Below are positions 15,439-35,525 of a stretch of 64,000 nt of DNA, piece after piece (within the stretch, counting starts at the first letter, position 1; the number at the start of each line of letters is the position of its first letter). The translations under genes were made by a program, and so were the position numbers. The stretch is taken from assembly GCA_030524745.1 (NCBI GenBank), contig JAUNGC010000022.1, forward strand, positions 1,017 to 65,016, given 5' to 3'. Under the pieces are notes generated by a model that was not told the origin of the DNA, searched no databases, and worked only from the letters and a program-made list of their open reading frames with translations. Source of the DNA: Eubacteriales bacterium (GTDB lineage Bacteria; Bacillota; Clostridia; Lachnospirales; Lachnospiraceae).

Positions 15439-16246
15439 AAAAATTCTGTTTTCCGATATGGACGGCACACTGCTCACCTCGGATAAAAAAGTATCCCCCT
15501 CTCTGCAGCGGCTTCTTACAAAAATGGTACACGCCGGAAACCGCCTGGTGCTCACCTCCGGCCGTTCCTTAGGCAGCATCTTAAACGTTGCGCAGCGCTC
15601 CGGGCTTCTGTTTCCCGATACGCTCATCATCACGACAAACGGCAACGAAGTCTATGATTATGACGGCAGACAGTTTCTTCTGCGCAAAACAGTTCCTATG
15701 GATATTGCGCAGGGCGTCATCGATCTCGCCCACAAATACGGCCTGCATATCCAGTCTTATAACGACAGCCATGTCGTCTGTGAGAAAGATTCTTCCGAAC
15801 TCGCTCACTATAAAAAGGCGACCGGTATGGACGCCTTTTTTACGGATGATATCATGGGCGCAATCAAAACGCCGCCGAATAAGCTTCTGGCAATCAGTCT
15901 GGAAAGCCGTTCCCGCCTGGAACCTCTCCGTCAGGATGTGATCCGGTTATACGGCGACAGCGTCACGGCCATGTTTTCCTGCGACCAATATCTGGAAATT
16001 TTTGATAAGACTGCCGGAAAAGGCAACGCGATCCGCTTCGTCTGCGATTACCTCGATGTTCCGCTGTCCGGCGCAGTCGCCGCCGGAGATGCTGAAAATG
16101 ACATTTCCATGCTGGATATGGCCGGGATCGGAGTCGCCATGGCAAATGCGGACCCGCAGGTAAAAGCGCATGCGGACTTCATCACAGAACACGACAACGA
16201 TCATGACGGACTGGCAGATGCGATCTTAAAATATTTTTCGCTTTGA
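15431..16246 (+). CDS. Cof-type HAD-IIB hydrolase
   Basis: DMDGTLL, TSGR, KGNA and GDAENDISM. Confidence 0.92.
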   Translation: MSEKILFSDMDGTLLTSDKKVSPSLQRLLTKMVHAGNRLVLTSGRSLGSILNVAQRSGLLFPDTLIITTNGNEVYDYDGRQFLLRKTVPMDIAQGVIDLAHKYGLHIQSYNDSHVVCEKDSSELAHYKKATGMDAFFTDDIMGAIKTPPNKLLAISLESRSRLEPLRQDVIRLYGDSVTAMFSCDQYLEIFDKTAGKGNAIRFVCDYLDVPLSGAVAAGDAENDISMLDMAGIGVAMANADPQVKAHADFITEHDNDHDGLADAILKYFSL

Positions 16247-16262
16247 CAAACTTACTTTTCCC

Positions 16263-16390
16263 CTACTCCGCCCAGACTTCATTTCCTTCCTGACCGGACA
16301 TCAGCCACCGGGAAACGCGTTCTACGCTGATGCTGTCCGTATAAAAGGAAATCCGCGCGCCTTCTCCGTCTTCGAGTATGGCACACAATT
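16263..16390 (-). pseudogene. Orphan 3' remnant of a homolog of the 22139-22660 gene
   Basis: Translates to ...LEDGEGARISFYTDSISVERVSRW...WAE*. It is 11/22 identical, ungapped, to DAEGRVYSYDTDQISVEKVLQY of the 22139-22660 product. No start or RBS. Confidence 0.7.
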
Positions 16391-16432
16391 TGCGTCTAAA
16401 CCAAGTGCACGGTTTGAGCGCTTACCAAACTG

Positions 16433-18184
16433 TCACTTATCCCCCTCATTACAAGCTGATACCACCAGTGAATAAAAATCGGATTTCTGCTCCATAAGTT
16501 GCTTGTACGTGCCGGATTCACTGATTTTACCGTCAGAAATGACCAGAATCTCATCAAAACGTTGCAACACAGAAGGTTCCAGATAGTGCGTAACAATAAT
16601 TTTGGTCATCCCCTTCAAGTCCAGAATCGTATTCAAAATATTCGCAGCAGTAGGCTTATCCAATGCAGCCGTTGCCTCATCAACCAACAGGATATGTGCG
16701 GAACGCAGCAGGCAACGGGCTATGGCAACTCTCTGCTTTTCACCTCCGGAAAGGTTTGCTCCTTCTTCACCGCACAGATAGTCCAATCCCTTCGCATCTG
16801 CCAGTCCGGACAACCCCGCAAATTCAACTGCCTTTTGGACGCAATTTCTCTCACTATGTTTATACAGTGTGATATTATTCAAAATGGAATCATTAAAAAC
16901 ACATACATCTTGGTCAATAACAGAATATAGCTTATACAGAGCACTCTGTGCAATGGTATTCAATTCAGTACCATCAACCCGAATGCTGCCCCTGTAATCA
17001 CGGTAATTGCCCAAAAGGATATTGAGCAGAGTGGTTTTACCGCTTCCCGTATGCCCAACAATAGCGTAACTCTTTCCGACTTTGAAAGAAAAGGACAGAT
17101 CTTTCAATACGTTTTTCTGATGTTCATATCCAAAATTTAGACGATCTAGCACAATATCATTTTCAAGTATACCGGATATTTCAACCCCCGATTCCTCCTG
17201 TCCTCTGCCGAGCAGTTCAGCCATTCTTCCCACCAGCCCGGAAGCCGCCTTTTTCTGCGCCATAATATTAGGAATTGAAACGATAGGGGAAACAACAAAC
17301 CCCATGAGGTTCAAAAATACAATAACCGTACCCGATGTGATATTTTCCCCGGATAACGCCATAAATGCAGCGCAGATAAAAATACCAAGCTGCGCGATAA
17401 CGCCTGCTCCTGCAGCGCATAGATTTACGAGTTCGGAAGTTTTCCTTCGTGTACATTTCGCATATTCAAGCTGATTATTCCGTACCCGGAACATACTCAT
17501 CATTTCCCCTTCAGCCTGAAAAGCCTTGACAATGGAAATTCCTGAAAGGACTTCCTTCACACAATTGACAAAACATTCATTGTTCTCTGAGACCAGTTTT
17601 TCGTCTCTGGCAAGTTTACTGCCAAACATAATTGATGATGTCACCGGCAGCATAGCAAAAACGACAGCAAGCAATGTAAGAAACGGACTATATTGCAGCA
17701 TCACAATAAACGCAAATACCAAACCGATGCTATCCATATAAAAAGTAAAAAGTACAGACAGGTAATTTGTTTCTATGGAAACAACATCGTTTGTAAGCAT
17801 AGAAATGTATTTTGACGTGTTTTCGGCACTAAGAGAAGATTTGTCCAGATCCAGCAAATGTTCGAAGGCAAATTCCTTATACTGCGTTGTTGCCCTGCGG
17901 ATGAAAGTTGGAGAAGATTGTCTCTGTATCAAAAAGACAATGATGAGAAGCACGAAAACACCAACAGAATACAGGCTGAGGTGTACCAACCCTGCCATGT
18001 CGTTCTGCGCTATTGTGTCAATAATCTTCTGCAGCAACACCGATATACAGACGTTCAACGCCGAAAGAAATGTGAGACATACTACGGTGATAACAAGCAT
18101 CTCGACATTGTTTTTGATAAATGTATGCTTCAATTCCCGACGCACGATATCTACATTTTTTTCAGTAACATTCAATTTTCTCAT
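16433..18184 (-). CDS. Fused ABC exporter (TMD + NBD), no C39 peptidase domain
   Basis: About six TM helices, GHTGSGKT, LSGGEKQR and VDEATAALD. GGAGG RBS before ATG at 18184. Confidence 0.92.
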   Translation of the reverse strand: MRKLNVTEKNVDIVRRELKHTFIKNNVEMLVITVVCLTFLSALNVCISVLLQKIIDTIAQNDMAGLVHLSLYSVGVFVLLIIVFLIQRQSSPTFIRRATTQYKEFAFEHLLDLDKSSLSAENTSKYISMLTNDVVSIETNYLSVLFTFYMDSIGLVFAFIVMLQYSPFLTLLAVVFAMLPVTSSIMFGSKLARDEKLVSENNECFVNCVKEVLSGISIVKAFQAEGEMMSMFRVRNNQLEYAKCTRRKTSELVNLCAAGAGVIAQLGIFICAAFMALSGENITSGTVIVFLNLMGFVVSPIVSIPNIMAQKKAASGLVGRMAELLGRGQEESGVEISGILENDIVLDRLNFGYEHQKNVLKDLSFSFKVGKSYAIVGHTGSGKTTLLNILLGNYRDYRGSIRVDGTELNTIAQSALYKLYSVIDQDVCVFNDSILNNITLYKHSERNCVQKAVEFAGLSGLADAKGLDYLCGEEGANLSGGEKQRVAIARCLLRSAHILLVDEATAALDKPTAANILNTILDLKGMTKIIVTHYLEPSVLQRFDEILVISDGKISESGTYKQLMEQKSDFYSLVVSACNEGDK

Positions 18185-18262
18185 AACCTCCAATGAGTAT
18201 TTCTCCATTCCAGATTCATGATAATTACGAACTTAATGCGGAATCCTCAAACCATATTTTGT

Positions 18263-18553
18263 TTATGTACGTTGAATTTTTAGTGCAGTCGTATAACTTG
18301 CTGCATTAACCGTTGATTCAAGATCAATATTATCTCCGATATAATAACCTGAACGAATGTACTCATTTAGTGCTTCCTCAAACTCTCTGCATGAGGATAT
18401 TCCCAACGATTCAAGTTCATCGGAAATTCCTTGGAATAACTCCTGTAGGTTATGGCTTTTTAAAATTTCCTGCAGTATTTCTGGTTTATTTAAGAAATCG
18501 AAAATTTTTGCCATTTGAATTGTTGGTACTCTGTCTATAACCACATCATTCAT
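18263..18553 (-). CDS. 96-aa acidic protein, candidate RiPP precursor
   Basis: AAAGGAG RBS before ATG at 18553. Lies between the radical SAM genes and the exporter. The ORF itself is solid, but the precursor role is inference. Confidence 0.6.
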   Translation of the reverse strand: MNDVVIDRVPTIQMAKIFDFLNKPEILQEILKSHNLQELFQGISDELESLGISSCREFEEALNEYIRSGYYIGDNIDLESTVNAASYTTALKIQRT

Positions 18554-18644
18554 ATTATACTCCTTTCTCAATTGACTTACTTCCATTTAAAGATTCCGCA
18601 TTCAGCTACTATGTTAAATATTTATATAAATAGACCACATCCAT

Positions 18645-20477
18645 TTAAAGATTCAGCAATCTAGAAAGATAGTAAACATCTTGGCTGATTTTTTCAATAC
18701 TCAATTTCCCTCCAAGTCTGGAAAACCTTATAAACGTCATTTCATACACTATTTTTTCTTCTCTAAGAGCCTTAAATATATCAAAGTCAAACTTAAACAT
18801 TTGTGTCATTTGATTTTGATTTTTACCAAAAAAATAATATTGCTTTTCAAAAGAATAAATTTGCTGCAAGTATTCGTAATCCGCCCCCTCTTCTCCATCT
18901 AATTCATTTTGAATAATTTTAGATACAAAATCAAAACATTTATCACTCCCGTTCCTTTCTTCATCAAAATCAGTGGAATATATCATATAATTCGATACTA
19001 ACTGCTTATGAAACTCGTCAACTTCTTTTCTATTACGATTGAACAAACATTCCAATGAATACTTTTTGATTAAAAACTGCACTGACTTATTGAAGAAAAT
19101 CATTCCCGTTGTAAGAATCGATAAAAAATCGTCAAAATTTTTATATCTTATAAAAACTTCTGTATCAAATGTATAAAACTGACTAAATAATTTAGGATAC
19201 TTTTTTATCAATTCAATCCCATAACTTGTAAAATGCCGTTTCTCCGATTTTGTCATCCTCATGTTCTCCAAATCAAAATAAAGCGCGTCTTTTGATACTT
19301 TATCAATTTCCTCACCACCAGTAAAGAGCATGAGTCTATGTAACTGTACAGATTTTATACCAAGAAGCAAAATTTTCTCTATTAATTTTAGAGTATCCCT
19401 AAAATCTTCAACTGTTTCATGAGGAAATCCAAAAATAAAGGATGCAGTTACATAATCAATCCCGATTTGTTTCATATATTTTATAGTTTGTTCAACTTTA
19501 TCAATATTAAGATATTTTTTTATATCTTTTTGCATTTTTTTTGATCCGGTTTCTATTCCGAGATATATTTCAACGCAATTTGCTTCCCGCATTTTGTCCA
19601 AAAGCACTTCATCAAGTATATCTATTCTTGATGAACAGGACCATTCAATATCCAGTTTTTCTTTAATAACTCTATCACAAAACGCAAATATGTAAGATCG
19701 ATTCGCTGTAAAATGATCGTGCACAATATAGAATTTCTTTAAGTCATATTTCACTCTATAACATTTCATTTCTTCTATTATATCTTCAATTGGTTTTATT
19801 CGATGCACACGTCCCCAAAATAAACTTGTTGAACAAAAGGAACACTGGAACGGGCAACCTCTCCCTCCCTCAATATCAACAAACGGAATTTTATCATCAT
19901 AACGAATAGGAACCCCTACCGAATAATTCGTTAATTCACTTGCTGAAAGTAGTTCTGCCCTCTGATTTATATGGATCATTCCCATTTTATCTTTATAACA
20001 GATACTTGGAATAGTATCTAGCGGTGGCACATTCAAAGGTGACAATATAAAATTTACTAAAGGTAATATTATCTTTTCACTCTCACCAACGCATATATAA
20101 TCAATAAAATCGAAATTTGCTAAAATTTCTTCAGCAAGCACAGACGCATGTGGACCTCCCAAAATAATACTAATACCTCGATTTAACTTTTTTATCCTTT
20201 CAGAGATTTCTATTACCAATTCAAATGAATTGCAAATAGTGTAAAATCCAACAATTGAAGGGGATTTACACAATATATATTGTACAATATTATCTATATT
20301 GACATCCATATCTTCAATATATTTAAACGAAGAATTTTCATCTAAATTTAGTAAATCAAAATTAATACACTCCGATTCATATTGTTGATTAACTATTTTA
20401 TTAAGGATTAGTTGTCCCAACTGTGGTCTTACGTCTAGTTTACAAAAATCAATCTGATTGACAAACAATATATCCAC
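18645..20477 (-). CDS. Cobalamin-dependent (class B-type) radical SAM enzyme, putative C-methyltransferase
   Basis: N-terminal B12-binding region (IVGFYT, ILGGPHAS, ICVGESE), then GRGCPFQCSFC, GIETGS and FIFGFPHET. GTG at 20477 follows AAGGGG (alternative GTG at 20495). Confidence 0.88.
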   Translation of the reverse strand: MDILFVNQIDFCKLDVRPQLGQLILNKIVNQQYESECINFDLLNLDENSSFKYIEDMDVNIDNIVQYILCKSPSIVGFYTICNSFELVIEISERIKKLNRGISIILGGPHASVLAEEILANFDFIDYICVGESEKIILPLVNFILSPLNVPPLDTIPSICYKDKMGMIHINQRAELLSASELTNYSVGVPIRYDDKIPFVDIEGGRGCPFQCSFCSTSLFWGRVHRIKPIEDIIEEMKCYRVKYDLKKFYIVHDHFTANRSYIFAFCDRVIKEKLDIEWSCSSRIDILDEVLLDKMREANCVEIYLGIETGSKKMQKDIKKYLNIDKVEQTIKYMKQIGIDYVTASFIFGFPHETVEDFRDTLKLIEKILLLGIKSVQLHRLMLFTGGEEIDKVSKDALYFDLENMRMTKSEKRHFTSYGIELIKKYPKLFSQFYTFDTEVFIRYKNFDDFLSILTTGMIFFNKSVQFLIKKYSLECLFNRNRKEVDEFHKQLVSNYMIYSTDFDEERNGSDKCFDFVSKIIQNELDGEEGADYEYLQQIYSFEKQYYFFGKNQNQMTQMFKFDFDIFKALREEKIVYEMTFIRFSRLGGKLSIEKISQDVYYLSRLLNL

Positions 20478-20491
20478 GTCTGTTCCCCTTC

Positions 20492-21412
20492 TCACATCTT
20501 TTGTCTTTTCATGTATGGAAGCAGTTTAAAGTAATTATTTGAATTGAATAACAGTGCACATAGTTCGCACGAAGATATTACTTTGGAGGGATAATTAATT
20601 CCAACCCGATCAGCAATATTCAAAAAATAGTCAAATCCATATTCTCGTAGCGATGCCAAAAAAATATTTCTGCGCAATCTATCATATGCTTCTTCCAAAT
20701 CAATATCAAAAATATTTCCAACGCTCAACTTTGTCTTAAAAACATACGGGGAACAACATGGCCAGATATTACCATTACAATCAATCGAAAATGTCCCTGA
20801 TTTACGACAATAACTATTGGTGCAATCATATTCTCGTATATAGTTTAAACCTTCAATAGTGTATTCTGCATATCCAACTGGATAACACGGGATAAAAGCC
20901 ACTTGAACATCAGCAAGATGAGGTCCCAAAATTCCAAATATATTACTCAAATTAGAACTGGCAGTAATTACACACTGTAATGCAACGGTTAGTTTCAAAT
21001 TCTTTGCCGCCATAATAACATTAATTATATTTTGTATAGGAACAAAATCATAATGATATTCATCACAGCTCAAACCGATACCGTTCAATCCAGCCGCCTT
21101 CAACATCTCAAGTTTCTGATATGCACCTTCATATGTAACCGCCCAAAACGCATTACTTGTTATGCTACATATCTTTCCACCCTTTTTGACTTCCTTTACG
21201 TATGTCAATAAACTACTGAAATCCAAAAAAGGTTCTCCGCCTGAAAATCCAATCTGAGTTATTTCGGAAATTTTATCTGCCTGCCTTATATATTCGATAA
21301 CTTTATCAAAAGGTAACCATTCTTTTTGTGTAGGAGAACACGAAAAGCAGCAAATATCGCATTTAGCTGTACATTGATTTGTCAATAGAATTCCCATATT
21401 TTCATAATGCAC
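20492..21412 (-). CDS. YydG/EpeE-family radical SAM peptide epimerase
   Basis: CTAKCDICCFSCSP, SGGEPFLD, SNAFW, SCDEYH.DFV, WPCCSP.VFKTK and SCELC.LLFNS are co-linear with B. subtilis YydG/EpeE as recalled. GTG at 21412 follows GAGGTG. Confidence 0.82.
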   Translation of the reverse strand: MHYENMGILLTNQCTAKCDICCFSCSPTQKEWLPFDKVIEYIRQADKISEITQIGFSGGEPFLDFSSLLTYVKEVKKGGKICSITSNAFWAVTYEGAYQKLEMLKAAGLNGIGLSCDEYHYDFVPIQNIINVIMAAKNLKLTVALQCVITASSNLSNIFGILGPHLADVQVAFIPCYPVGYAEYTIEGLNYIREYDCTNSYCRKSGTFSIDCNGNIWPCCSPYVFKTKLSVGNIFDIDLEEAYDRLRRNIFLASLREYGFDYFLNIADRVGINYPSKVISSCELCALLFNSNNYFKLLPYMKRQKM

Positions 21413-21511
21413 TACTATCACCTCAATTCGTATTATCGTCCAGCCTTATAATCCAAACCCATCCATAGTACACTGAAGCTATATTCAAACTATTTCTTTA
21501 AAATATATTTT

Positions 21512-21540
21512 ATTATAGCATCAGTAAGATATTTATGCAA
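21512..21540 (-). promoter_or_regulatory. Sigma-A promoter of the radical SAM operon
   Basis: TTGCAT-N17-TATAAT with an extended -10 TG. Confidence 0.75.
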
Positions 21541-21543
21541 TAT

Positions 21544-21557
21544 TGCCATATATGGCA
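21544..21557. promoter_or_regulatory. Perfect 14-bp palindrome TGCCATATATGGCA, candidate operator
   Basis: Lies 3 bp upstream of the -35 and overlaps a second palindrome, GCAATATTGC (21537-21546). Confidence 0.5.
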
Positions 21558-21658
21558 CCATCTAGATCTGAAATTATATACAAAATTTTATCGTATCAAT
21601 CGGGTTTTTGACACTTTTTAACAAAGAGTAATTAACTCTGACATCTGCACTTACTTTA

Positions 21659-21741
21659 TTATAATAAGGGGAGTAATTGGTCCGATGTGGGCTTGGGTCA
21701 TTACATCCGTTAAAAAAACGTTAACCAACCCCTTATTATAA
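21659..21741 (+). other. Nested inverted-repeat element (possible structured ncRNA or miniature element)
   Basis: Outer arms TTATAATAAGGGG/CCCCTTATTATAA. Inner pairs TTGGT/ACCAA, GATGT/ACATC and CGTT/AACG. Confidence 0.35.
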
Positions 21742-22082
21742 GTATTCGATTAAGTAGGTAGGTATATCTTATAAGCGAACAGATCTGACGGATGATTTAC
21801 ACAAGACATTCGATTTTCATACGGATTATGAATTCACCTCAAAATCAGCCATGCGAAGCATAATAAAAGTATCAAAACAGAAAAAGTAAAAAAATAGCAC
21901 AAATCGTTTTCGAAAAAGAAATGTATACAGACCAAAAATACTGGATTTGTATCCGTTTTTTATTTTCATGTGCAATACTACCAATTTCAGCAGTAATAAT
22001 GTGTTCCGTAATAGCAGTTTAAATCAGCCTATTTTTGTATCTATCAATAATATATTTTCCCCCAAAAATTTTTCATATAAAA

Positions 22083-22128
22083 GTGATTGTCATATAAGTA
22101 ATCGCTAAATCACTTATATGACAATCAC
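22083..22128 (-). terminator. Rho-independent terminator ending the upstream minus-strand operon
   Basis: 17-bp perfect arms GTGATTGTCATATAAGT/ACTTATATGACAATCAC followed by TTTT on the minus strand. Confidence 0.8.
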
Positions 22129-22138
22129 CCACTTAATC

Positions 22139-22660
22139 TCATTTCCATTCAGAATTATTTTCTAATCTGCAATATTGCAGCACCTTTTCCACAGATATCT
22201 GGTCTGTATCATACGAATAGACGCGTCCCTCCGCATCAATGTATTGTACAAACACCCCATATATCCTGTCTGTCGAACTGTTTACCAATTTAACAGACCA
22301 CATATTCAGCAATGAGCCGTCTCCAAAATCAAGCGTAACAACAGCCTCTTCCTTTGGCGCGGTTCCGACTTTACCTGGTCCGCACGACGTTATGATATCA
22401 TAAAGTTTATAGGCATTGTCGCCAGACATCCGGATTTTCCGGTCATCCATATTAACCTGCAGACAATCATTCTCGTACGCGTATGTAATACTTTCTGATA
22501 AATCGCCGACAAAACGCCAATAGCGTCTTTGATACCATCCCGACCAGATAATCGAAAGTACAACAATCAAAATAACCAGGAAACACGCGCCAAGACCTGC
22601 AATAAGGGGCCACTCTGCTGACTTTTTTTTCTTTTCTTTTTTATTGATTACTTCATACAT
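22139..22660 (-). CDS. Hypothetical single-pass membrane protein
   Basis: Basic N-terminus, one TM segment, RBS AAGGA. Confidence 0.8.
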   Translation of the reverse strand: MYEVINKKEKKKKSAEWPLIAGLGACFLVILIVVLSIIWSGWYQRRYWRFVGDLSESITYAYENDCLQVNMDDRKIRMSGDNAYKLYDIITSCGPGKVGTAPKEEAVVTLDFGDGSLLNMWSVKLVNSSTDRIYGVFVQYIDAEGRVYSYDTDQISVEKVLQYCRLENNSEWK

Positions 22661-22672
22661 TTTTATTCCTTG

Positions 22673-22930
22673 TCAGCCCTCCACAATCAGATATCTTCCG
22701 TCACCCACTTCAAATACCTCGTCCGCTTCCAGAATGCTGTCGGCGTCTTCCATATCCACGCCCACTTCCTCAAAATACGCCCGCACTTCTTTGGGGGATT
22801 CCACCACAACTGCCATGCAATCCTCCAAAAAAGCTTCCGCTTCCCCCATGCTCTCCGCCACGTTCTCCGGAAAAAGCTGGCTCTGCTTTTTCAAAAAGCA
22901 CTGCAAAACGGCGTCATCATATTCATACAT
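22673..22930 (-). CDS. Conserved small acidic protein
   Basis: 85-aa ORF with a strong GGAGGG RBS, in operon context. Confidence 0.8.
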   Translation of the reverse strand: MYEYDDAVLQCFLKKQSQLFPENVAESMGEAEAFLEDCMAVVVESPKEVRAYFEEVGVDMEDADSILEADEVFEVGDGRYLIVEG

Positions 22931-22959
22931 ATCCTTCCCCTCCTTTTCTCTTTCTTTTT

Positions 22960-23754
22960 TTATTTTCCGTTTAAAAGGCGTACAATCTGCCAGACGCCTT
23001 TTTCTTTCCAGGACGGACAGATATGCTTCGCCGCCGCCTTGACATCCGGATGGGCGTTTTCCACCGCATAGCTTTCCCCTGCCGCCTGCATCAGTCCGAT
23101 ATCGTTGGTATTATCCCCAAAGGCCATGGTATCTTCCTTTGCGATGCCAAACGCCGTCTGAATCGTCTGCAATGCGTTTCCTTTATCCACAGAAAGGTCC
23201 ATGAAATCCACCCATTCCTCTCCCGCGACACAGGTCTTTAATCTGTCCTTCCAGGCGGGAATGAGAACGCTTTCTCCCAGTTTTCGGATGCTGTTCTTCT
23301 GATAAAGCGCAACCTTTAAAATGGGTTTTCCCTGCTTTAATATGTCGTCCACCACCTGAAAGTCGTTGTGATAGCCATAGGTCATCATATCCAGAAATTC
23401 CCGGTTATGCGTCTCCAACAGGCTTCCCTCCGGCGTGGAAACGATCATTTCACAGTCTTTGATTTTGCGAAGCTGTATAATCAGTTCTTCCGCATATTCC
23501 CTGCGCATCTGCGTTAACGCCAGATCTTTGTCCCGATATCGGATATGAGCCCCGTTTTCCGCGATATAAATAATTCTGTCCGCCACGTCCCGGAACACAT
23601 TGCGGATGCTGGCATATTGCCGGCCGCTGGCGCAGGCGAAATAAATTCCCTGATCCGTCAGCCGCAGGATTTCTTCCACAATTTCGGGGTACAGATCCGG
23701 CGTGGAATCCTGAATCAGCGTGCCGTCAATATCCGTCGCAATCAATTTTATCAT
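22960..23754 (-). CDS. Cof-type HAD-IIB hydrolase
   Basis: DIDGTL, ASGRQY, DKGNAL and FGDNTNDIG. Confidence 0.92.
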   Translation of the reverse strand: MIKLIATDIDGTLIQDSTPDLYPEIVEEILRLTDQGIYFACASGRQYASIRNVFRDVADRIIYIAENGAHIRYRDKDLALTQMRREYAEELIIQLRKIKDCEMIVSTPEGSLLETHNREFLDMMTYGYHNDFQVVDDILKQGKPILKVALYQKNSIRKLGESVLIPAWKDRLKTCVAGEEWVDFMDLSVDKGNALQTIQTAFGIAKEDTMAFGDNTNDIGLMQAAGESYAVENAHPDVKAAAKHICPSWKEKGVWQIVRLLNGK

Positions 23755-31967: not shown

Positions 31968-32243
31968 AAAGCTTAAAAAGAGAATCCTGTTTTACAGGAT
32001 TCTCGCGCTGCGCATACGGCTAAAGCCGCTTAGGTTGCCATCAGGCAACTCTTTCCTTTCCGCGCGCATGCGCATCCCCCGGAGGGCTTTTTTATGCTAT
32101 AGGAAATCCGAAGGAATTTCCTATGGCATAAAAAAGAACAGGCCGGGAATCCGCCATGGATTTCCGGCCTGCCAGTTCTGTTTGCTCCAGATATCACTTC
32201 CGTATGCGGCTATAAAAAGGATAAAAACAGAAAGAATTCAGAT

Positions 32244-32819
32244 TCAGGGATTTTCCTCAATAGCTTTCGTAAATTCTTCTATCGTTCCCGCCTTAGTAAC
32301 AAGCTTCAGCCACTTGCACAGTAGATTCTGATCCTTTTCCTGCACAATCCGGTCATGCAACTCAGTCGAAATCTCTCCAAGTTCGCTTAGCCAAATCAGA
32401 ATAGCCTCCGCTTTTCCCTCAGATTTTCCTTCATCAAATCCCATCTCATATTCAGCTTTACGGATCTTGCGCATTTCCTCTTCTTCATTATATTCAAAAA
32501 TTGACATTGCCACTACCTCCGATCGCTGCGCCGTCAGGAAATCGGAAAGGATTCCTTTCTGAATACATTCCGTGACGGCATGTTCTACCGCATCCTCAAT
32601 TTTCTCTTTATTCGCATATGCACGGACACAGGCTACATATTCACTGTATTCTTTCAAAGTCCTGCATTTTTCCATCAATTCGCTGTTGTTGCCCACATTG
32701 ATATTCAGCATCAGCACTTTCAGTTCCAGTTCCGGATCTTCCACATGCTTCTCAAACGCATCTGACAGCTTCAATATTTGTCTTTCCGGCTGCTTGCAGC
32801 TTCCATTGTAAAACACCAC
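32244..32819 (-). pseudogene. 5'-truncated Rpn / PD-(D/E)XK transposase-like family gene
   Basis: KIPVPRFVVFYNG...LELKV.MLNIN...C.TL.EYS...LSDFL...EV..M...EY..EE. An in-frame stop lies a few codons upstream, so the N-terminal domain is absent. Confidence 0.75.
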
Positions 32820-33115
32820 AAATCTTGGTACGGGAATCTTTACGCTCCTTTCTGCAATTGTGCGCAGGAAGCCGCTTTTTCTTCAGCAACCCCTGCCTGA
32901 TAAAGGTGAATTTTAAGCATAGAGTTTCTGAAATGAATGATAGATACAATGGAAAGCATGATTGGAATACTTTCCATTGTCATGAATAAGACGGTCTGTG
33001 ACCCGGATTCTTCGAAAGTTTATGCCCAAGATCATCTTATCACGATAATTGTCCGGGCTCAATCTTTTTTTGACTGTTCAGGGCAGAAAGAGACCCTTTC
33101 GATTCGCCGCCAGCA

Positions 33116-33556
33116 CTATTTGGTCTTCTTACTCCAGGTCATAACATATTCTTTTTCATTGGTGCTATCGTCAACATTTTCAGATTGTATTGCAAACTGT
33201 TCTCTCTGATAAAAGGAAACTGCGCGTGTGTTTTTCTGATAAACCCTTAAAATCATAGTTGACTTAATTTCTTTCGCATAATTCAGCAATTGCTTCCCGA
33301 TACCTTTTGACTGGGCGGCTTCTCTCACAAAAATACCCGCAATATAATTATTGTCTGTGAATCCGATGAAGCCATCTATTTGATTGGTCGTATCATCTTC
33401 ATACACATATACTTCTGCCTGCGGCAATATCTCATTTACTGTTGCATAATTATCAGTCCAATAATTCTCAGAGATAAAGTCATGCGCTTTCCTATTTGTT
33501 TTTAGCCATATCTGCATAACGGCAGCCAAATCATTCCCTCTCAATATTCTTATCAC
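33116..33556 (-). CDS. GNAT family N-acetyltransferase
   Basis: IAGIFV....SKGIGKQLL and N..A..FY. Confidence 0.88.
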   Translation of the reverse strand: MIRILRGNDLAAVMQIWLKTNRKAHDFISENYWTDNYATVNEILPQAEVYVYEDDTTNQIDGFIGFTDNNYIAGIFVREAAQSKGIGKQLLNYAKEIKSTMILRVYQKNTRAVSFYQREQFAIQSENVDDSTNEKEYVMTWSKKTK

Positions 33557-33675
33557 GATATCGTCTCCTCATATTCCCTGCTCCCGAATCCAAAAGTGAT
33601 GCAAACCAAGTGAAGATTCCCCGTCGAACGGCATAACTGCTTTTTTTGTTTATACAGCCTGGTAATGCTGAAATA

Positions 33676-34149
33676 CTATATAAGCAATTCAAATTCAATC
33701 TCATGGCGCAAAGGTATGAAATTCTCACCAATTATAGGGATCTCCGGCTTTAATTTTCTTGATATATCCATAGCATTCCGGAACAGATGCGCCATATCAA
33801 ATCCCCGTTTCTGATAAAATCTGATCGCATTAATATTGTCATTTGTCGTGATAAGAACAACTTTTTGAAGATTTCTTTCTTTCGCTTCCCGTATGACAAG
33901 TTCCAGGAGTTTAGTACCAATTCCCTGATTTTCCCGCAAGCTGTCAAGTGATACTATCTCCAGTATGTTTTCATAAACCAAATATGTTATTAAGCCAATA
34001 ATAGCTTCCCCATCTCTAAAACAGAATCCTTCTGTTTTAGTCACATCAACTTCCCTGCCACGAATAATCATCGTTGTGGTATACCAACGCTGTTCCATAA
34101 ACTCATTGATCTGATGCCGGTTCAAGCTGTCAATTCTTTCACATTCCAT
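33676..34149 (-). CDS. GNAT family N-acetyltransferase
   Basis: SLDS..ENQGIGT and ITTNDN.NAIRFYQKRGF. Confidence 0.88.
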   Translation of the reverse strand: MECERIDSLNRHQINEFMEQRWYTTTMIIRGREVDVTKTEGFCFRDGEAIIGLITYLVYENILEIVSLDSLRENQGIGTKLLELVIREAKERNLQKVVLITTNDNINAIRFYQKRGFDMAHLFRNAMDISRKLKPEIPIIGENFIPLRHEIEFELLI

Positions 34150-34181
34150 ATGTCATTGTCTCCCTGCATAAACCGGGGCTG

Positions 34182-35525
34182 TTATCCCATTATAGCCTTC
34201 CGTTCCATTTTCCGCATGACAAACCGATAGGAAATCCACAGAAAGACACCCGTAATTCCCCATGCGCTCGCGTTCGCGCAGCACACGCCTTCATAGCTGA
34301 GCAGATGCGCGGCGATAACCGCAACCACCGCGCGGCAGACCAGTTCCACCACGCCGCCCATCATGGGCAAAAAGCCGTAACCGCAGCCCTGCATGACATT
34401 GCGATAAATAAAGATCATTCCCAGCGGAATGAAGAAAATACCGCAAATCGTGACATAAATGCGCACATAGGACAGCACTTCCGTCAGATCTCCCGCCAAA
34501 AACAGACGGACCACCCAGGGCAGCGTAAGTTCCAGCACCGCATAAGCGGCTACGGAATAGACCGCAGACATCCAAAACGCAATTTTGGCCCCTTTTTTGA
34601 TCCGGTCCAGATTTCCGATTCCCCTGTTTTGCGCGCTGTAGGTGGCCATGGTCATCCCCATCGCCCCGTACACCTGGGTCACGAACTGTTCCACCTTGCA
34701 TGCCACCGTATAGGCCGCAACTACGGTGGAGCCGAGCATATTCAGCGCCGCCTGCACCATAATCGCCCCGACCGCCGTGATGGAAAACTGCAGCGCCATG
34801 GGGATGCCGATGGAAAGCTGGTTTTTCATGCACCAGGCCTCCGGCTTAAAATGCTGCTTTCCAATCTGCAAAAGAGGCACTTTTTTCAAAATATAAAGCA
34901 GACACAGCAGACCGGAAACGCCCTGGGACGCGACGGTGGCCACTGCAGCGCCCGCCACGCCCATTTGAAACACAATAATCAGCACCAGATCCAGCACCAC
35001 GTTCAAAACCGCCGCCAGAATCAGAAAGTACAGCGGCACTTTGCTGTTTCCCACGGCGCGCAACATGCTGGAAAGCAGATTGTATAAAATGGTGAAGCCC
35101 ATCCCCAGACAAATAATGAGTATGTAAGTTTTAGACATCTCAAAAATGTCATCCGGCGTCTGCATGACGCGCAGCAGCCATCCCATTCCCGCCGCGCTCA
35201 GAATCGTCATAAACACTGTGACAATAGCGGACAGAATGTAGCTGTTTCCTACGCTTTTTTTGACGCCTTCTTTGTCTCCCGCCCCGAATCTCTGGCTTGT
35301 CAGCACCGTAAATCCGGTGGTCAGTCCCTGCATGAAGCCAAGGATCAGAAAAGATATGGTCCCCGTCGCTCCTACCGCCGCAAGCGCCTGCACGCCCACA
35401 AACTGTCCGACGATGACAGTATCCACCACGCTATAAAGTTGTTGAAATATATTGCCCAAAATAATGGGAATGATAAACTTTACAATCAGCCGAAAGGGGC
35501 TTCCCTTTGTCATATCAAGTTCCAT
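34182..35525 (-). CDS. MATE family efflux transporter
   Basis: MTKG.P, QQLYSVVDT..VG, RAVGNS..PL and about 12 TM segments. Confidence 0.95.
   Translation of the reverse strand: MELDMTKGSPFRLIVKFIIPIILGNIFQQLYSVVDTVIVGQFVGVQALAAVGATGTISFLILGFMQGLTTGFTVLTSQRFGAGDKEGVKKSVGNSYILSAIVTVFMTILSAAGMGWLLRVMQTPDDIFEMSKTYILIICLGMGFTILYNLLSSMLRAVGNSKVPLYFLILAAVLNVVLDLVLIIVFQMGVAGAAVATVASQGVSGLLCLLYILKKVPLLQIGKQHFKPEAWCMKNQLSIGIPMALQFSITAVGAIMVQAALNMLGSTVVAAYTVACKVEQFVTQVYGAMGMTMATYSAQNRGIGNLDRIKKGAKIAFWMSAVYSVAAYAVLELTLPWVVRLFLAGDLTEVLSYVRIYVTICGIFFIPLGMIFIYRNVMQGCGYGFLPMMGGVVELVCRAVVAVIAAHLLSYEGVCCANASAWGITGVFLWISYRFVMRKMERKAIMG

Follow-up and report, generated by a model that had tools for sequence, protein, structure and literature searches.

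To our knowledge, no enzymes other than the radical SAM (S-adenosylmethionine) epimerases have been described that introduce D-residues irreversibly into ribosomal peptides, and we know of only two characterised lineages of these epimerases, the PoyD-type and EpeE. A gene on the minus strand of a contig from a Eubacteriales bacterium of the family Lachnospiraceae raises the question of whether its product is an epimerase of the EpeE lineage and, if so, on which peptide it acts. The gene lies in a 64,000-nucleotide stretch of contig JAUNGC010000022.1 (positions 1,017 to 65,016), the whole of which was analysed and is referred to here as the window. An original prediction, made from the letters of this stretch, had described the product as a radical SAM enzyme that keeps the full catalytic signature of Bacillus subtilis EpeE (the current name of YydG, PMC8326336) and that is an active C-alpha epimerase acting on a new substrate. 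Our analyses favour, with a probability of about 0.7, a functional EpeE/YydG-family radical SAM enzyme that epimerises a predicted precursor of 96 amino acids (aa), a reading that draws on sequence comparison, structural modelling and analogy with EpeE. The predicted epimerase and precursor belong to a cassette of four co-directional genes, in which the epimerase gene is followed by genes for a radical SAM enzyme that is B12-dependent, the precursor and an ATP-binding cassette (ABC) exporter (Table 1).

Relationship of the enzyme to EpeE

When all PDB sequences were searched with phmmer, significant matches were obtained for EpeE only (entries 8AI1-8AI6, expectation value (E) 6e-39). The match extended over residues 7-306 of the predicted epimerase and residues 29-336 of the EpeE chain, and the next matches were viperins at E 0.3. 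Among NCBIfam models the best was TIGR04078 (YydG family radical SAM peptide epimerase), of whose 309 positions 3-307 were matched with E 8e-59. It led the next model, MoaA (E 7e-12), by 47 orders of magnitude, and the ranthipeptide enzyme PapB followed with E 1e-7 in a match confined to the N-terminal 80 residues (residues 9-85). The PoyD/OspD-type epimerase family was absent among the NCBIfam and PDB matches of the enzyme, and the PoyD-type and EpeE lineages have no significant homology to each other (PMC8326336). The original prediction had named low full-length similarity to EpeE, or best matches to thioether- or cyclophane-forming SPASM enzymes, as results that would speak against it. The similarity proved to be full-length, and the YydG model was the best match instead.

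The relatives of the enzyme grade into canonical TIGR04078 members, as 53 of 55 matched that model at E ≤1e-30 and the best reached 1e-100. Only 118 representatives were found at E ≤1e-30 when 1.84 billion proteins, clustered at 50% identity, were searched; the query's own cluster in this library lay at 64% identity and the next directly at 40%. Judged by these sequence comparisons, the clade of the enzyme is small and divergent, and the family to which it belongs is itself small.

To compare individual residues, EpeE residues 4-311 were rebuilt from the phmmer output and aligned with 55 relatives using MAFFT, and all counts given below are out of these 56 sequences. The PDB entries of the C223A and D210A mutants of EpeE fixed the offset of the chain numbering at 25 residues, and the C223A mutant sequence settles which cysteine of the EpeE pair is C223. 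Residues of the predicted epimerase are numbered on its 306-aa form, which is three lower than in the original prediction. All nine of the EpeE cysteines compared (14, 18, 21, 22, 206, 222, 223, 289 and 292) correspond to cysteines in the enzyme (14, 18, 21, 22, 202, 219, 220, 282 and 285, respectively). The match goes beyond chance, because the cysteines occupy the same columns and these columns are invariant or near-invariant across the 56 family members. The columns of C202, C219, C282 and C285 hold cysteine in 56 of 56 sequences, and that of C220, the candidate hydrogen donor, in 53 of 56. The SAM-binding motif GGE (G58-G59-E60) and residues N87, W90, S115 and H120 are likewise invariant or nearly so. 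We take EpeE C206, C222, C289 and C292 to be the probable ligands of its auxiliary cluster, in keeping with the positions of its cysteines.

The enzyme is thus similar to EpeE in length class (306 versus 319 aa), in the CxxxCxxCC and GGE motifs, in all of the candidate auxiliary-cluster cysteines, and in the P-C-C-S-P loop with its hydrogen-donor cysteine. A Pfam SPASM match was observed at residues 206-247. Only four C-terminal cluster cysteines are present, in contrast to the thioether- or cyclophane-forming maturases (AlbA, SkfB, CteB, PapB and SuiB), for which a full SPASM domain with two auxiliary clusters, in most cases an RRE, and an acceptor in the core that is Cys or aromatic are typical, and, like EpeE, the enzyme has no RRE (recognition element) domain.

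Structural modelling indicated that the fold is also shared. An AlphaFold2 model based on the alignment of 55 sequences was highly confident (predicted local distance difference test (pLDDT) 96, predicted template modelling score (pTM) 0.92). When this model was compared with the PDB using Foldseek, nine EpeE chains (8AI1-6) ranked first, with a template modelling (TM) score of 0.92, a root mean square deviation of 2.1-2.4 Å and E ~1e-30, which upheld the original prediction in the structural comparison that it had proposed. The next match, 20 orders of magnitude behind, had E 1e-10 and a TM score of 0.58. The runners-up (BlsE, SkfB, CteB, SuiB, viperins and PqqE) all had TM scores of ≤0.61, those of SkfB, CteB and SuiB being 0.47-0.61. 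The homology, the fold and the conservation of the cysteines are direct observations, and it is from these that we infer the epimerase activity.

In EpeE, C223 is the hydrogen-atom donor, and the enzyme has two [4Fe-4S] clusters and an extended twitch (T-SPASM) domain (PMC13012085). The role of C223 and the Val/Ile substrates of EpeE, as given in the original prediction, agree with the published accounts (PMC13012085, PMC8326336). By analogy, the N-terminal [4Fe-4S] cluster (C14/C18/C21) would cleave SAM to give a 5'-deoxyadenosyl radical, which would take the C-alpha hydrogen from at least one core residue of the precursor. Cys220, the second cysteine of WPCCSP, would then give a hydrogen to the opposite face, leaving a D-residue, and the resulting thiyl radical would be reduced by the adjacent auxiliary cluster (C202/C219/C282/C285) with a proton source other than the Asp210 of EpeE. 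The B12-dependent enzyme would probably add at least one C-methyl group, after which a protease from outside the cassette would remove the leader and the ABC protein would export the product.

The start of the epimerase gene bears on this numbering. On the minus strand the gene ends with the stop codon TGA at 20494-20492, and in the list of open reading frames (ORFs) it was read from its first in-frame start, GTG 21421, as a protein of 309 aa. In that reading cysteines occur at 17, 21, 24, 25, 28, 85, 119, 150, 179, 200, 205, 215, 222, 223, 285 and 288, WPCCSP occupies 220-225 and CELC 285-288. Every residue of the motifs listed in the original prediction (CxxxCxxC with an additional Cys, C205, WPCCSP and C285xxC288) was therefore found as described, and in the ORF these are the motifs CxxxCxxCC, WPCCSP with one cysteine upstream of it, and CxxC. 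GTG 21412 is more likely to be the true start, because GAGG (21424-21421) precedes it by 8 nt and the exact protein has 306 aa in the public gene call (P0001). The alternative GTG 21421 falls within the ribosome-binding site.

The predicted precursor and the B12-dependent partner

The small gene located two genes downstream of the epimerase gene was read from 18586 in the ORF list, giving 107 aa, and the 96-aa form is used here. It has a long leader that is predicted to be helical, is Nif11-like and ends in ...DNIDLESTVNAA. No Pfam or NCBIfam model matched the precursor even at E 10, and a search with the single sequence found only itself. A profile search of 5.8 billion proteins returned eight clusters at 90% identity, all of 80-97 aa. 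The N-terminal 75-85 residues of these eight clusters align with each other and with the Nif11-like Gly-Gly leaders of more distant clusters, which are described below.

In this alignment the VNAA of the precursor corresponds to the VAGG of related double-glycine leaders, and because AA stands where GG is found in those leaders, the core is predicted to be SYTTALKIQRT. At the junction, ...DDIDLEGVAGG before KVVVAVWL... in the distant cluster L172 can be compared with ...GDNIDLESTVNAA before SYTTALKIQRT in the window. The junction is Ala-Ala in the window precursor and Cys-Gly or Ala-Gly in some other members, and by alignment the cores would be 11-15 residues long. The aligned cores are SYTTALKIQRT (window), AYTTGAKIQRT, NTYTTETKYQVIS, ETYTTDQKYQYTQKK, TVTLESNTTKITIKT and KVSVTNSEFIL. 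AYTTGAKIQRT is identical in P0070 and P0074 despite their diverged leaders, as one would expect of a mature peptide under selection. The precursor shares with double-glycine/Nif11-like precursors the length of the leader, the predicted helical pattern and D-x-I-D-L-E-x-V before the junction. It differs from them in that they have Gly-Gly and an exporter with a C39 peptidase, whereas the cassette has Ala-Ala and an exporter without C39.

The 96-aa ORF probably encodes the substrate of the epimerase. It is the only small gene that accompanies both radical SAM genes in every arrangement observed, even where it lies on the opposite strand (loci L004 and L087). The original prediction of a new substrate is consistent with this, as the predicted precursor is unrelated to EpeX: it has 96 aa and a Nif11-like leader, EpeX has 49 aa, and there is no relationship between their cores. 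For epimerisation and C-methylation, the conserved K-(I/Y)-x and (Y/N)-T-T motifs would be obvious candidates. Two small ORFs upstream of the epimerase gene (25 aa, 21651-21728; 23 aa, 21490-21561) were also weighed as possible precursors of the EpeX type but discarded, as they are unconserved and the related locus L001 has only 190 bp there.

The gene between those of the predicted epimerase and precursor encodes a protein with a B12-binding domain (PF02310, E 5e-12) and a radical SAM domain (PF04055, E 6e-24; motif CPFQCSFC). As read in the ORF list, this gene reaches to GTG 20495 and has a 4-nt overlap with the stop codon of the epimerase gene, and its start is likely GTG 20477, which follows GAAGGGG. 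The best named family was ApyD (NF050148), with E 5.5e-76 over residues 12-445, at a score of 256 bits against a cutoff of 750, and the ~170 C-terminal aa match nothing. ApyD is a B12-dependent radical SAM methyltransferase that acts on Tyr C-beta in aminopyruvatide biosynthesis (PMC11117315). The two enzymes are alike in having B12-binding and radical SAM domains, and a Tyr (YTT) is conserved in most cores of the cassette type. Unlike the ApyD system, the cassette is without MNIO (multinuclear non-haem iron oxidase) or cytochrome P450 partners. On its domains and score, we classify the protein as a class B radical SAM enzyme and not an ApyD equivalog. No riboswitch or other Rfam family, the cobalamin riboswitch included, was found in 16000-23000.

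Organisation, origin and relatives of the cassette

Table 1. Positions of the cassette genes and associated features in the window.
Feature	Position	Strand	Remarks
Fused permease/ATPase ABC exporter	16433..18208	-	591 aa; no N-terminal C39 peptidase domain
Precursor peptide gene (predicted)	18263..18553	-	96 aa; ATG 18553 after AAAGGAG
Predicted core SYTTALKIQRT	18266..18298	-	Last 11 codons; boundary inferred from alignment
B12-binding radical SAM enzyme, predicted peptide C-methyltransferase	18645..20477	-	~610 aa; directly downstream of the epimerase gene
YydG/EpeE-family radical SAM enzyme, predicted peptide C-alpha epimerase	20492..21412	-	306 aa
Shine-Dalgarno-like GAGGTG	21419..21424	-	5' of epimerase GTG 21412; read from sequence
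AT-rich non-coding spacer	21425..22081	-	About 650-700 bp; GC 0.31; should hold the cassette promoter
Perfect hairpin, 20-bp stem and T-run	22082..22129	-	Directly after the gene for a 173-aa membrane protein (22139-22660)

The four ORFs of the cassette are intact, and good ribosome-binding sites were observed at the epimerase, B12-dependent enzyme and precursor genes. The GC (guanine plus cytosine) fraction is 0.30-0.34 in the epimerase, B12-dependent enzyme and precursor genes and the spacer, 0.42 in the exporter gene and 0.50-0.51 in the flanking genes. The cassette thus forms a low-GC island, at ~16433-22081, between two convergent housekeeping blocks. The flanking genes point to a Lachnospiraceae host near Eisenbergiella (the polyphosphate kinase is 85% identical). 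Related Lachnospiraceae have the same flanking blocks in a different, co-directional order and are without the cassette, and because the blocks are ordered differently there, the island sits at a rearrangement breakpoint. In an empty-site comparison with the closest genomes, the best Cof271 matches were 42% identical and the cassette was absent, but the gene order was rearranged. The four-gene cassette is a horizontally acquired accessory unit. A second, milder dip in GC (0.41) was noted elsewhere in the window, at 32000-34200, where a 191-aa ORF and two small acetyltransferase-like ones (146 and 157 aa) are located.

The upstream hairpin coincides with the edge of the low-GC island and is likely a terminator that shields the cassette against transcription coming from upstream. 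The spacer between this hairpin and the epimerase gene contains no conserved ORF and gave no match in Rfam. A 13-bp inverted repeat at ~21660-21740 was rejected as a candidate structure, its folding being no better than expected from shuffled sequence (z -1.84).

Conservation of the gene neighbourhood was observed directly. The epimerase, the B12-dependent radical SAM enzyme and the small ORF recur together in six further types of cluster in varied order and orientation (L001-L003, L004-L006, L087-L088, L089 and L171, and also P0074/P0076), with the exporter where the contig reaches that far. The closest relatives of the epimerase (64% and 46-48% identity) are known only from metagenome contigs, each beside the same partners. 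In L090 the B12-dependent enzyme adjoins the epimerase, and no precursor or exporter was found on that contig.

L001-L003 have the same gene order as the window, and the exporter is syntenic with the cassette there (56% identity). The four cassette genes are all that the window and L001 have in common. In L001 (4968-7811; also in L002 and L003) the cassette is directly downstream of genes for a LytTR regulator, a histidine kinase, a 51-aa AgrD-like ORF and AgrB. This agr-like module suggests quorum-sensing control in L001; no genes of such a module were found near the cassette in the window. No obvious Shine-Dalgarno sequence was seen before the exporter ATG 18208, and the start of the exporter may be a downstream Met, because the alignment with the L001 homologue begins at residue 18.

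Other layouts were also observed. L004-L006 carry a 46%-identical cassette in which the small ORF is divergent and upstream, on an element that also encodes a relaxase and MobC, and L087 and L088 show the same divergent layout of the small ORF. The L004-L006 element is mobilisable or conjugative. In L004 (4122-7105; also in L005 and L006) the neighbouring genes encode a relaxase, a MobC/NikA-like protein and a helicase/MutS-like product, the last of these genes being very large, and the precursor is on the opposite strand. At 42% identity, L089 has the order ABC exporter, B12-dependent enzyme, epimerase, small ORF, and L171 has the order B12-dependent enzyme, epimerase, small ORF, ABC exporter.

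In more distant relatives (35-42% identity: L007, L008, L010, L172 and L173), a YydG-like enzyme was found together with a homologous B12-dependent radical SAM enzyme. These clusters have Gly-Gly precursors with aliphatic cores (e.g., KVVVAVWL..., IKIGSLYIEKA and AAPILGPIK), and some of them also contain additional radical SAM genes or a C39 peptidase encoded separately. Together they seem to form a broader group of clusters, apparently still uncharacterised. A search for clusters combining YydG-like and B12-dependent enzymes, in literature of incomplete coverage, yielded no description of the cassette.

Alternative explanations and implications

Several observations weigh against the enzyme being an EpeE-like epimerase that acts on the 96-aa precursor. 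Its identity to EpeE is 28% over 300 columns, and with TIGR04078 it scores 199.6-199.7 bits, short of the 300 bits set as the curated cutoff for equivalogs. EpeE Asp210 has been proposed as a proton source coupled to thiyl reduction, which regenerates C223 (PMC13012085). The corresponding position is Thr207 in the MAFFT alignment, or Ser 212 in the 309-aa numbering by HMMER, and family members differ in this column (T in 15, G in 9 and N in 5 of 56). D211 lies four residues beyond Thr207 in the same hairpin. The predicted core contains one Ile and one Leu, EpeE targets Val/Ile, and some relatives have Tyr in place of Ile. The route of maturation is also a weak point, with no leader protease in the cassette and no C39 domain in the exporter. 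The full catalytic signature claimed in the original prediction was overstated: all nine EpeE cysteines are kept, but Asp210 is replaced by Thr and is not conserved in the family. The operon context also differs, since EpeE is encoded in epeXEPAB in Bacillus subtilis, whereas in this anaerobic gut Lachnospiraceae the cassette has a B12-dependent radical SAM partner, no EpeP protease and a single fused ABC exporter in place of EpeAB. Because of the curated cutoff, Asp210 and the operon context, we would class the predicted epimerase as a divergent subfamily of the EpeE lineage and not as an EpeE orthologue.

Some of these features could instead reflect an enzyme with the EpeE fold that abstracts a C-alpha or C-beta hydrogen with another outcome (a crosslink, a desaturation or a site made ready for the B12-dependent enzyme), and in which the CC motif serves mainly in cluster binding and electron transfer. 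Such an enzyme would account for the score below the equivalog cutoff, the unconserved D210, a core rich in Thr/Tyr rather than Val/Ile, and the constant pairing with a B12-dependent radical SAM partner that is absent from canonical epeXEPAB. We nevertheless consider it unlikely, given the weak structural matches to crosslinking SPASM enzymes and the retention in 53 of 56 sequences of the hydrogen-donor cysteine, as such a cysteine diverts the C-alpha radical to epimerisation and not to a crosslink (PMC5682303). A thioether product would be excluded because the predicted core SYTTALKIQRT has no Cys. That the 96-aa ORF is not the substrate of the epimerase, and instead either serves the B12-dependent enzyme alone as substrate or has an accessory or immunity role, with the real substrate encoded elsewhere, seems to us a rather poorer prospect still. 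Adjacency is no proof, as EpeE is leader-independent (PMC8326336), and the ORF has no match to a known precursor family. It is, however, the sole small gene travelling with both radical SAM genes, its leader aligns with the obvious GG-type precursors of related clusters, and the rejected ORFs upstream of the epimerase gene offer no conserved replacement, with little room for one in L001.

The cassette might also be a decaying, non-functional remnant of horizontal transfer, as its composition is foreign (GC 0.30-0.34 versus 0.50) and there is no regulator or protease, unlike L001 with its adjacent agrBD and LytTR/histidine kinase genes. The four intact ORFs with ribosome-binding sites, the presence of every catalytic motif and the highly confident AlphaFold2 model make this very improbable. 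Overall, our data are best accounted for by a functional epimerase of the EpeE/YydG family that acts on the 96-aa precursor, and the product of the cassette is probably a previously undescribed short modified peptide with D-amino acids.

A more tentative extension, to which we give somewhat less than an even chance, is that the locus encodes a new class of ribosomally synthesised and post-translationally modified peptide (RiPP), in which a peptide of 11-15 residues is cut from a Nif11-like leader at Ala-Ala and carries one or more D-residues together with C-methylation by the B12-dependent enzyme. This would amount to a "mini-proteusin" logic that arose independently, with an epimerase of an unrelated lineage. 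In proteusins (e.g., polytheonamide, with PoyD and the B12-dependent C-methyltransferases PoyB/PoyC) an epimerase and a radical SAM enzyme dependent on B12 likewise act on a precursor with a long leader. The cassette is unlike the proteusins in that its epimerase lineage is unrelated, the core is far shorter (~11 aa) and the leader is not of the NHLP (nitrile hydratase leader peptide) type by any model tested. In such a class the epimerase may act on non-canonical Tyr, Thr or Ala without the Asp210 proton relay, and, given that agr and LytTR genes adjoin the cassette in related loci, the peptide might serve as a signal and not as a toxin.

With this locus, the EpeE lineage would reach beyond epipeptides, to a new family of precursors, a new partner enzyme and a gut host that is strictly anaerobic. 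As a compact system of four genes it is tractable for heterologous expression, and it provides a natural test of whether the EpeE mechanism needs Asp210. The product and the enzyme pair could also interest peptide engineers, because D-residues and C-methylation confer protease resistance.

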